Made by a program: the position numbers and the translations under genes. This document shows, one piece after another, positions 28,550 through 48,400 of a stretch of 64,000 bases of DNA; position 1 is the first letter of the stretch; every line of letters starts with the position of its first letter. The notes beneath the pieces were generated by a model that did no database searches, was not told the origin of the DNA, and was given only the letters and a program-made list of their open reading frames with translations. This stretch comes from Eledone cirrhosa (Eukaryota), in assembly GCA_964016885.1 (NCBI GenBank), contig OZ024741.1, positions 324,818,001-324,882,000 on the forward strand, in the 5' to 3' direction.

Positions 28550-29140
28550 TTAAACTTGGGGAGGGTCATATTGTTCTAATAATATTGCTAGAAATAATAA
28601 CAGAACACACTCACTGGTTGGTTTTCACTTCTGCATCTTTTATATCTCCATAGTTAATTTATTTGGCAATCAAGGTTTATCATTGACTGACCATCGGTTA
28701 AAAATACAGGTATAAATATATATATAGTCTAACAAAGTTCTTTCGTTGCACATCTGCAACATCATCAGTGGTACTATTATCATGTTCCCTCCTATTGTGT
28801 TGTATTGTAATGTTCACGCCATTTTTCTTTCTTTCTTACAATCACACACAATAAAAATGGCATGAACATTACAATACAACACAATAGGAGGGAACATGAT
28901 AATAGTACCACTGATGATGTTGCAGATGTGCAACGAAAGAACGTTGTTAGACTATATATATTTATATCTGTATTTTTAACCGTTGGTCAGTCAATGATAA
29001 ACATTGATTGCCAAATAAATTAACTATGGAGATATAAAAGATGCAGAAGGGAAAACCGACCAAACAGTGAGTGTGTTCTGTTATTATTTCTGACAATATT
29101 ACAATATTATTACAACAATATGACCCTCCCCAAGTATAGC
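28550..29140. repeat. Fold-back inverted repeat (arms ~28550-28823 and 28853-29140) of a hammerhead-bearing Penelope-like unit
   Basis: Arms are near-perfect reverse complements; each carries CTGATGA-T-GTTGCA-GATG-TGCAAC-GAAA. Confidence 0.9.
28907..28948 (+). ncRNA. Minimal type I hammerhead-like motif (mirror copy on minus strand at 28731-28772)
   Basis: CUGAUGA core, 6-bp stem II, GAAA; stems I and III weak or decayed. Confidence 0.55.
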
Positions 29141-29202
29141 AATATTTGTTTCGACACACGATTTCATATCAAAAACCTTTCAAAACATATATATATATAT
29201 AT

Positions 29203-45400: not shown

Positions 45401-48400
45401 TATCATTGATTGTCCTCTGACAATCCTCATGCACATGCTGATTAATTTTTTCCACATTTCCAGAGGTGACACTCATGGCAAGTCTTCCAGATCGCTCATC
45501 ATCTTCCAGGGACATTCTTCTGCTTTTGAAGCACTCGTGCTACTTGAAACATTACATATGACACTGCCTCATCACCATAAGCTTGCCAAAGCAAGTTCAG
45601 TTCCTCTGTAACAGGCTTCCCAAGTTGAATGCACAATTTCAAATTGGCTCTTTGTTCCAGCTTCCTGTTCATGACAAAATTGCAGGCTACAGCATAAACA
45701 TGATCACAAAAACACAAATTTCACAACGCACGAAGTGAACACAGCGATGTTACTTGGCACACTGGTGCACAAAGGTCACTGCTAACTCTCATTGCACATG
45801 CAACCATGTGTTGCTATCTGTTGGCGCAATATAGAACTAGTCTGAAAACGTTTTGATACCATCTCATATATACATACATATATATATATATATATTGTTA
45901 TACTTTGGGAGGGTCATGTTGCCAATAAGAAACACACGCACCAGTTGCTTTCACTTCAATTTATTATAATAAATTTATAAATTTAGGAATTTATAAATTT
46001 CCGGTTGGTTGGTTGGTTCCACAACCAGATGGTTGTTTATATATTGTCAAAGTTCTTTCGTCACACATTCTGTGACCTCTTCAGTGACTGGGGATTCTTT
46101 TCTTTGTTTTGTGTGCCTCTCCTTTGTTCTGTCCTACGCCATCTGAAGAGGTCACAGAATGTGTGACGAAAGAACTTTGACAATATATAAACAACCATCT
46201 GGTTGTGGAACCAACCAACCAACCGGAAATTTATAAATTCCTAAATTTATAAATTTATTATAATAATTGAAGTGAAAGCAACTGGTGCGTGTGTTTCTTA
46301 TTGGCAACATGACCCTAATACTATGGGCATATTGGCTAGAATGTCTCAGGAAAAAATCACTGGACAGATTTTACAGACAAAACCAACCAGCAGGAGACCT
46401 AGGTGTAGACTCCAAGCAAGATGGTTAGATAACATGCATGAGCTTGGCTGTTCTTACTTAGGGATCCAGCTGGATCGATTGAAAAGGGTTGCTTCTGACA
46501 GGACTTGCTGGATGGAGTGTTTAAGGACTCTGCCCTCACGACCTTCCCAGGAATAAGTGGGCTAAGAAGAGAGATAGGTAGAGAGAAAGAGAAGTAGAGG
46601 GAGAGAGAAAGAGAAAGAGAACTAGAGAGAGAAGTCGAGGGAGAGAGAGAGAGGAGTAGACAGAGAAGGCACACTTACCTAACTGGTTGACATTTTTGCT
46701 TGGGTTTACTGATTTAGCTATGTTGTTGTGTTGGTCAAGCTGCATGTTCTGTACAGGGGGTCCTGCCATACCCCCTGTTGCACCTAAAACACCTGGAGCT
46801 GTAGTCGCTGTTGTGGTTGGTCCACCATCTTGGAATATGGGACCAGATATAGGGATACGGGTGTTATTCGGGGATGGCATTCCATAGATAGGGTTATCAA
46901 TTCCAGCTGATGGTAGAAAGAAAAATAGGTAAATAGATAAGACCAAGAATAATAATAATTGTTTCTACTTTTGGCACAAGGCCAGCAAATTACCCAGTGC
47001 ATTACTTGTACTTTATTTTATCAAACCCCAGTGCATTACTGGTAGTTTATTTTATCCACCCCAGTGCATTACTGATACTTTATATTAGCAATATATAGTT
47101 TTAATATATATATACATACTATATATATACACACAAACACAAACACAAACACAAACACACACACACACACATACATACATACACACAACTAGTTAGGAAA
47201 TTACAAGTACAATCCATTAATGGAACAGTAAAAATATGTAAAACATTCCAAAAATTTTGCATCTAATAACTGCATATACACATGTACAGATACAAAACAT
47301 ATACACATGCACACATACAACTCAAAACATACACATCCACACATACAATAACATCCACATCTACACATGCCTACATACATACGTATCTACCTAGTTGATG
47401 TTGTGTAAATTCCAATGAGAGAGTCTTGTGTCTATTTTAGAAACTGACTCTCTCACTATTGGTAAAACTTTGTGAAATTATAAAACCAGAAGAACATACA
47501 TATACATATATATATATATATATATATATATAGAGAGAGAGAGAGAGAGAGAGAGAGAGAGAGAGAAAGGATAAAAAGGACGATTGATTATTCCTTCATT
47601 GCATTTATTGATAGGTGACGCGCGTTTCGCCACTGATCAGCTCAAGGTTCGATCTGTATCGATCTTACCCGACTCAATAATCGGCAGCTCGACGGACATT
47701 CCTGAAATGCTATAAGAAAATGAAATACATGCGATGTGGTAAAGTCAGATATTCAAGAGTTTGACAAAATGAGTTGTTTTGATTGGTGGGAAGGGTCAAG
47801 GCGATGTACTGGCCTGTAGTGTATATGGGGGTGGGTGTGATGGTGAGATGTTGGTGACGGTGGGTGGATGAGATGGGCTGTGGTGTGGTGGTGGTTGATT
47901 GGCCTTGGCATGTAGAGTATGTGGGGGTGGATGTTATGATATGGTGGTGGTTATGGTTGCTTAGTGGGATGGGCTGTGGTATGAGGTTAGTGGGTTGTCA
48001 GTAGACGGGTTGGCGTGTGTGTGGGGGTGTGGTGTTGGTGCCGCTGTCTATGGTAGTGGCGTTTGTGGTGGTTTGGCAGATGTATTGGTGGCGTCAAGGT
48101 CATTACCCAGATACATAGCTAGTCGGTCATCGTCTGGCAGATGCTTTGTATATACTTATACGCACACACATATATAGGTATATATGTGCACACATATTGT
48201 TGTATAAACACACCCACCACACAACACATACGTACATCCTTGCCCACACATATCGACACACGGTCACACACGGCCATATGTATATGTACACACATGTATG
48301 TAGATATAGATCGAACCTTGAGCTGATCAGTGGCGAAACGCGCGTCACCTATCAATAAATGCAATGAAGGAATAATCAATCGTCCTTTTTATCCTTTCTA

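Follow-up and report, generated by a model that had tools for sequence, protein, structure and literature searches.

Hammerhead-bearing repeats of Eledone cirrhosa as probable terminal repeats of a high-copy Penelope-like retrotransposon

What is the nature of the short repeats, each built around a hammerhead ribozyme motif, that occur alone or as inverted pairs in a 64,000-nt stretch of the Eledone cirrhosa genome (GCA_964016885.1, contig OZ024741.1, positions 324,818,001 to 324,882,000, hereafter the window)? A preliminary description, made from the sequence of the window, saw in them a non-autonomous, ribozyme-processed retro-element, either derived from the terminal repeats of Penelope elements or retrozyme-like. 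Following searches of the 3.0 Gb assembly, the five arms of the window are very probably to be read as terminal repeats (pseudo-long terminal repeats, pLTRs) of a high-copy Penelope-like element (PLE), inserted as 5'-truncated and inverted copies, and their shared motif as the minimal hammerhead of that element. The Penelope origin is supported by the linkage, at other loci, of the same pLTRs to an open reading frame (ORF) with reverse transcriptase (RT) and GIY-YIG endonuclease domains. The retrozyme-like alternative is not borne out: the unit belongs, as the pLTR, to a family that carries an ORF, short and ORF-bearing copies are interleaved on trees, and in the intact copies sampled the start lies 5' of the ribozyme.

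With a relaxed pattern (CUGANGA, a stem of 4 bp or more, then GAAA), exactly five cores are recovered from the two strands, at +28911, -28768, +43583, -46084 and +46143 (numbered along the window, the sign giving the strand). All five have the CUGANGA-N-stem II-GAAAG core and, as first described, one surplus base between A9 and G10.1. The two types of stem II reported earlier are present, but they are distributed over three subfamilies instead of two: GUUGCA/UGCAAC characterizes subfamily A (28.5-29.2 kb), and GUCACA/UGUGAC is found in both B1 (43.5 kb) and B2 (45.9 kb). At 28.5 and 45.9 kb, the two arms of each pair form inverted repeats, head to head. In the first pair, the inverted, 5'-truncated arm (28544..28829, - strand) ends at ATG+26, that is 26 nt past the A of the ORF start codon, in a TA-rich target, and matches the 3' end of an ORF-bearing copy (L096) at 89%. 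Its complete core, CUGAUGA-U-GUUGCA/UGCAAC-GAAAG-AA-CUU, occupies 28735..28768 (-), with a predicted cut, from hammerhead numbering, 3' of 28735. The direct arm and its tail (28850..29190, +; 90% to L096) begin 61 nt 5' of the core at a AAAATGGC motif and are followed by (TA)n. The core of this arm (28911..28944, +) does read GAAAGAACGUU, and is predicted inactive, U16.1 being changed to G (GAAAGAACGU). The arm closes with the ORF start codon and first codons (MTLPKYSNICFDTRFHIKNL, 29120..29190, +), which correspond to the formerly proposed end motif plus a tail.

The B1 copy (43534..43806, +) is a solo pLTR with tail flanked by (TA)n runs. It begins 49 nt 5' of a complete core (CUGAGGA-G-GUCACA/UGUGAC-GAAAG-AG-CUU, stem I GUCA/UGAC; 43583..43617, +) and terminates with the ORF start codon and first codons, comprising the pLTR end and the 60-nt tail (43721..43806, +). 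The first B2 arm (45892..46144, -) begins 60 nt 5' of its complete core (46084-46050, -), ends at ATG+26 in (TA)n, and matches the pLTR of a complete element (L294) at 98%. Its inverted partner (46143..46316, +), which forms with it a 124-nt perfect inverted repeat, begins at core position C3, having lost the 5' strand of stem I, and stops 8 nt into the ORF. Three of the five arms thus retain the complete motif, with the 2-bp stem III and the CUU triplet noted before. A miniature inverted-repeat transposable element or a foldback element was ruled out, the arms being head to head, variable in length between loci, and ending within an ORF. Furthermore, a microRNA hairpin was considered and rejected: the microRNA matches in an Rfam scan of the window are hairpin artefacts, and the 88 matches of that scan at E<=1 include no hammerhead family.

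The units had been described as having no ORF attached. This holds inside the window, where tblastn detects no Penelope-like ORF remnants, but outside it an ORF is reached by at least 36 of 100 copies taken in order of position. Exact matches to the core pattern number 17,453 in the genome (reversed control, 0), and two DNA queries gave about 3,500 and 3,200 candidates at first look. Some copies reach farther 5' than the window arms. At one locus (L015), the inverted arm continues into a GIY-YIG frame (PF01541, E 4e-4, under the curated cut-off). Used as a query, this frame scored 150 matches out of 33,747 candidates, and among the matches listed from the loci so found (L061-L090) the frame is followed by a 3' untranslated region (UTR) and a B-type unit. 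Subfamily A copies at L037, L043, L047, L049, and L058 run on into RT (YVDD) and GIY-YIG frames. A 633-residue open frame scores with RVT_1 (E 5e-4) and GIY-YIG (E 3e-4), both again under the curated cut-offs; despite these scores, the endonuclease motifs NVVY..YIGET, R..EH, and E..LN and the RT motif YVDD are found. It has 140 homologues, mostly from unnamed marine contigs, the best match being an Octopus vulgaris protein with 68% identity; a sequence search of the PDB returned no match at E<=1.

Walking toward the 5' end shows, in front of full-length copies, the hammerhead unit known from the window arms. The ORF starts at ATGACCCTCCC.AAGTATAAC (MTLPKYNN), which explains why the supposed end motif ATGACCCT(CCC.AAGTATA) is conserved between copies: it consists of the ORF's start codon and the codons next to it, and the true ends of the unit lie 26 or 86 nt past the A of the ATG. 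Of 29 loci selected with a DNA probe for the N-terminal part, 7 have an ATG that runs into the ORF, with a core upstream in five of the seven and one frame open for at least 200 codons. An 18-nt probe across the pLTR-ORF read-through has 579 matches, some of them inside a short tandem; a 46-bp tandem array made from the N-terminal coding part is found at G000:C1:132947036-132947559. All three loci fetched (L294-L296) harbor a pLTR-ORF-pLTR partial tandem of about 4.0 kb, with a period of 4,027 bp and an ORF of about 1,220 codons with few breaks in L294. The complete element is therefore ordered pLTR, ORF (RT, Cys linker, C-terminal GIY-YIG), pLTR. In the B2 pLTR, a AANATGGCG motif stands at -60, the hammerhead extends from 0 to +35, and the ORF starts at about +167. 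The five units lack the layout of a retrozyme: what stands upstream is PLE 3' UTR and ORF, an inverted arm, or target DNA.

To which PLE lineage does the parent belong? Its linkers (CIDKKCIIC and CTNKKCVIC) are followed by C-x4-C and H-x4-H, as compared with the rows of Fig. S2 in PMC8557442, and this CX4CxxC linker with a CCHH motif places the element with the Neptune/Nematis type of endonuclease-bearing (EN+) PLEs. The order of RT, CX4CxxC linker, and GIY-YIG with CCHH is shared with Neptune/Nematis (PMC8557442, PMC3846280), as are the partial tandem, the inverted 5'-truncated arm, the first codons in the pLTR, the optional tail, and the microsatellite targets. The spacer after CxxC has 7 residues here as in the three Nematis rows, whereas the Neptune rows have about 25 (PMC8557442, Fig. 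S2). In contrast, the tail is 60 nt instead of the 30-40 nt in print, the ORF has about 1,220 codons with an Asn/Thr-rich low-complexity insert, and the RT (L091:2221-4119; L294:3766-7427) carries a long insertion between motifs 3 and 4 and GAAIG in place of the usual GxxMG, which reads GLAMG in those Nematis rows. By these features, the parent may possibly represent an unplaced PLE lineage. Naiad was ruled out, the endonuclease being C-terminal here.

Does the motif itself look like a working hammerhead? Between the A and B1 copies of the window, identity rises above that of shuffled sequences only in the core (30 of 40 columns, 75%, against 46%) and at the ORF start (63 of 84); the flanks stay at the shuffled level (47% vs 49% and 41% vs 37%). 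Together with the compensatory pairs of stem II, this supports the selection on RNA structure proposed earlier. A looser core pattern, whose 48,872 matches count overlaps twice and served only to find subfamilies, yields further subfamilies C (CUA), D (UUA, with G-U at 15.2-16.2), and E (CUC), several of them linked to the same ORF end and start; the loci with CUA, UUA, and CUC triplets are L254-L273, L261, L281, L283, and L124. An A-like pLTR carries a B-type stem II in subfamily E and at L124, and L200 and L246 have mixed stems. In 18 rows picked to represent the commonest variants, the core does not vary except at N7, where each of the four bases occurs, at the extra base (U or G), and at position 17 (U, A, or C). 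To our knowledge, position 17 of a hammerhead is not G. Across the 17 distinct rows, 94.6% of the cells are paired (19-44% in slid controls), with stem II paired at 100% and stem I, which has two invariant pairs, at 85%; double changes occur in three pairs, two in stem II and one in stem I. Positions 15.2-16.2 are complementary (G-C or G-U) around an AA, AG, or GA loop, and stem III is self-complementary, with wobbles, only in subfamily D (AGAUUU). A different minimal hammerhead-like motif, CUGAUGA-A-GGAC/GUCC-GAAAC-GUUA, is seen at L097 (- strand, core near 5601 of the reversed locus) and likely derives from another Penelope family.

The minimal hammerheads of metazoan PLEs have been described with an extra base, a long stem II, a short stem I, and a low, dimer-dependent activity (Cervera and De la Pena 2014, PMC4209133). 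Those reported there share with the present motif the type I core, the extra base at 9/10.1, G10.1-C11.1, the long stem II, and the short stem I; in both cases mostly single motifs lie on truncated copies, several covarying families coexist per genome, and opposite-strand pairs stand 100-700 bp apart. They differ in stem II, which has 6 bp here against 7-8 in the Schistosoma families, in stem III, here G15.2-C16.2 with a mostly non-palindromic AA, AG, GA, or AU loop, and in the triplets, here CUU, CUA, CUC, and UUA; octopus does not feature in the available text of that paper. Since the published PLE hammerheads are of low, dimer-dependent activity and protein-assisted, cleavage by the motif is predicted to be weak and to require a dimer or the help of a protein.

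Several observations weigh against a working ribozyme. The observed number of doubly changed pairs was reached by 156 of 500 shuffles, and as the covariation rests on two stem II types, it amounts to about two events. G and C at position 17 are both rare (157 scattered matches for G; 263 for C, with a control of 48), so the exclusion of G holds only at the subfamily level. A dimer would hold a 2x2 purine mismatch (AA or AG), unlike the clean palindrome of many PLE hammerheads, and no predicted dimer adopts the hammerhead fold. The 2-bp stem III of the monomer, having a 2-nt loop, cannot be scored as a hairpin. Stems I and II do form in the default fold of B copies, but that of subfamily A is a different long hairpin.

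These points leave room for the best-surviving rival, which concerns the ribozyme step alone and is compatible with the pLTR assignment: the hammerhead-derived motif would no longer cut and would be retained, between start site and ORF, as a folded signal for protein binding, translation control, or promoter function. The weak stem I of subfamily A (2 bp, a mismatch, 2 bp), the non-palindromic loop III, the U at position 17, and the alternative default fold agree with such a signal, and so do the PLE hammerhead mutants without effect on insertion in vitro and the anole element without reads ending at the cut site (both PMC11167929). We nevertheless consider it rather unlikely, as the catalytic-core bases are invariant in the sampled subfamilies, while N7, the extra base, the loops, and position 17 vary in the way a working hammerhead permits, and related minimal motifs do cleave when dimeric or assisted by protein.

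Where do the copies begin and end? Ends were mapped on the first 100 core matches along contig C1; as an intact core was required, this sample excludes any copy that begins at the cut site. The 5' ends are spread between 0 and positions beyond -1,500, and 31 of the 100 copies start at -95 to -45 (31 of the 53 5' ends in the interval -195..+5, p 2e-7). Similarly, the start lies 49-62 nt 5' of the core in four of the five arms of the window. An adjoining inverted arm is present at 45 of the 100 cores. The peak lies just 5' of the AANATGGCG motif, which is common to most subfamilies and which we take to resemble the YY1 site that positions the LINE-1 start. It likely marks the pLTR transcription start; alternatively, as it adjoins AC-rich sequence, it could mark a place where the reverse transcriptase stalls. 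At the 3' side, B2 copies stop at ATG+26 (22 of 52) or ATG+86 (19 of 52), defining the 60-nt tail, with a TA run next to 48 of the 52. A further run (X2) gave loose (TA)n ends at the same two positions. Another recurrent repeat, starting with AACGAAGGAAATGTGGTAAGGAACCAGG, stands in the same (TA)n runs (L068, L074, L123, L129, and L030), which suggests a further TA-targeting element.

Set beside the observed anatomy, ORF linkage, ends, targets, and conservation, a route of insertion may be proposed for the pLTR copies. The RNA would start in the upstream pLTR, about 60-80 nt 5' of the hammerhead, a start in the upstream pLTR being reported for tandem PLEs (PMC6765202). The element protein would nick (TA)n DNA, and reverse transcription would be primed at one of two internal sites, ATG+26 or ATG+86, located 60 nt apart in the first ORF codons. 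Copies primed in the downstream pLTR would be 5'-truncated, some possibly extending into the ORF; those primed in the upstream pLTR, or made on an RNA begun in whichever pLTR, would comprise only the part from start to tail, a solo unit of 250-340 bp as in the window. The inverted arm would be added during integration. The hammerhead would most likely trim tandem read-through RNA without setting the ends of the inserted units, and its selection would take place in active parent elements and not in the dead copies of the window. In the Anolis Poseidon element PAc, two internal priming sites cause the tail, and hammerhead cleavage is protein-assisted and not needed for insertion in vitro (Mob DNA 2024, PMC11167929). 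PAc shares with the present family the two 3' ends defining the tail, the AT-rich targets, and a hammerhead near the ORF start; the ORF starts within the hammerhead there, and about 165-225 nt past the core start here, and the mechanism demonstrated for PAc is here inferred.

Do the solo copies form a lineage of their own? Of 55 B2 cores, 40 rows passed the identity and 3'-end filters (13 short, 20 ORF-bearing); no common variant is private to the short or to the ORF-bearing copies, and the two kinds intermingle on the tree (12 changes vs a shuffled mean of 10.5). The B1 tree (49 rows, 36 short and 8 long, B2-type rows filtered out) has 8 changes vs 7.4-7.5 when shuffled, and in it solo copies are about as far from one another as from long ones (0.096 vs 0.100). 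Solo and ORF-linked copies are not told apart by any diagnostic site, the lowest uncorrected p values being 0.025 over 28 columns (B2) and 0.026 over 20 columns (B1). Judging from these two low-resolution trees, the short copies appear to have no lineage of their own, and the independent spread envisaged in the preliminary description largely gives way to pLTRs tied to a Penelope family. A point on the other side is that the ORF is reached by 2 of 34 B1 copies vs 25 of 55 B2 copies (p 4e-5), in samples that were differently selected. As both trees are nearly star-like and B1 is rich in solo copies, some limited copying from solo masters is possible.

A stronger version of this idea makes the solo pLTR a self-propagating non-autonomous element, akin to a short interspersed nuclear element (SINE) or to a monomeric retrozyme, with its own promoter, transcribed from the solo copies, and moved in trans by the RT and endonuclease of the parent. 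It would account for the sharp 5' peak at -45 to -95, the similar starts of four window arms, the mostly solo state of B1, and the more than 100-fold drop of summed contig depth beyond the tail in run X2; moreover, pLTRs have been reported as sufficient for mobilization in trans (PMC3846280). We regard it as quite improbable, given the lack of any site separating the two kinds of copies, the unclustered labels on both trees, the like distances, and the absence of head-to-tail arrays of the five-arm unit among the loci examined.

The weakest reading, a chance motif kept in a repeat by common descent alone, is hardly credible and already largely refuted: the missing Rfam hammerhead match and the mere two stem II types would suit it, but the core is 75% identical amid flanks at the shuffled level, its differences fall at free or compensating positions, and its location in the pLTR agrees with published PLE hammerheads.

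With the arms read as pLTRs of a PLE, much of their anatomy has precedents. The extra base, the inverted arms, the tail, and the (TA)n targets are all already published for Penelope elements: inverted 5'-truncated arms, a tail, and microsatellite targets were described by Craig et al. 2021 (PMC8557442), and a pLTR containing the first codons by Arkhipova et al. 2013 (PMC3846280). The pLTR hammerhead is thus an instance of a phenomenon described in 2014. In octopus, Penelope expansions are in print, the available text making no mention of hammerheads (PMC13282606, PMC8967140), and 235 Rfam hammerhead hits were reported in the giant squid (PMC6962438). A literature search on hammerheads, retrozymes, and Penelope in octopus and other cephalopods found no description of this family, although the supplements of PMC4209133 may list cephalopod motifs. 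The more than 17,000 copies offer natural variants of the minimal hammerhead, with U, A, or C at the cut site and four loop III types, and the two sharp 3' ends provide material for testing the internal-priming model and the role of PLE hammerheads.

A retrozyme may yet be present in the window, next to the 28.5-kb pLTR insertion. A separate family, which adjoins that insertion on the right and was missed by the preliminary description although within its coordinates, is present as about 1.7 head-to-tail copies of a 431-bp unit (29253..29990, +) with type I hammerhead cores at 29303 and 29734, the second with CUAA. The tandem is preceded by an inverted piece of the family's own 3' end (about 29205-29252). 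The hammerhead has a stem I ACGAUG/CAUCGU, a U-U followed by a 4-bp stem II, a palindromic ACUAGU stem III, and GUA; a U-U at the base of stem II is also found in axolotl HHR_Amex2. A 37-nt exact core probe has 2,156 matches in the genome. Among 30 loci (28 distinct), three have two cores, spaced by 426, 453, and 440 bp; most are monomers and partial dimers, and many begin in the 3' part of a preceding unit. In this small sample, no PLE ORF is contiguous with the unit at any of the 30, a PLE protein match being seen at the far edge of two, about 1.4 kb off. The longest open frame has 77 codons, and there is no DNA similarity to the A or B pLTRs. Among the sequencing runs searched, all in the form of contigs, the single RNA run, a metatranscriptome containing 4% of the words, yielded no match placed on this family or on the pLTRs.

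Non-LTR retrozymes are non-coding type I hammerhead repeats related to pLTRs (PMC7229834), from which the five arms depart, as they are tied to an ORF and are not tandem monomers. In contrast, the 431-bp family fits the 150-450 bp tandems of low GC content reported for such retrozymes (PMC7229834; Li et al. 2026, 10.64898/2026.07.22.740005) and, from its sequence, is likely the better candidate of the two. Its copies stop against (TA)n at either of two 3' ends spaced by about 57 nt, and inverted 5' pieces are present. This insertion signature is that of the pLTR copies, and the candidate retrozyme was possibly moved by Penelope machinery. Tentatively, and with more doubt than confidence, it may be imagined that one unplaced PLE lineage, with its Nematis-like linker, GAAIG, RT insertion, and 60-nt tail, generates thousands of solo-pLTR retrocopies when its RNA is primed internally in the first repeat, and that its machinery, or that of a relative, moves the 431-bp retrozyme in trans, the retrozyme and its candidate Penelope driver then lying next to each other in the genome. 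The family could serve to test the proposal that Penelope elements move animal retrozymes.

Other repeats are found elsewhere in the window. Positions 6222-7397 (-) hold repeats with a period of 84 bp, as is typical of a C2H2 zinc-finger array (family D16), many SINE-like repeat copies lie on both strands between 30865 and 63209 (families D14, D17, and D20), and a 32/34-bp minisatellite occupies 1320-1770.

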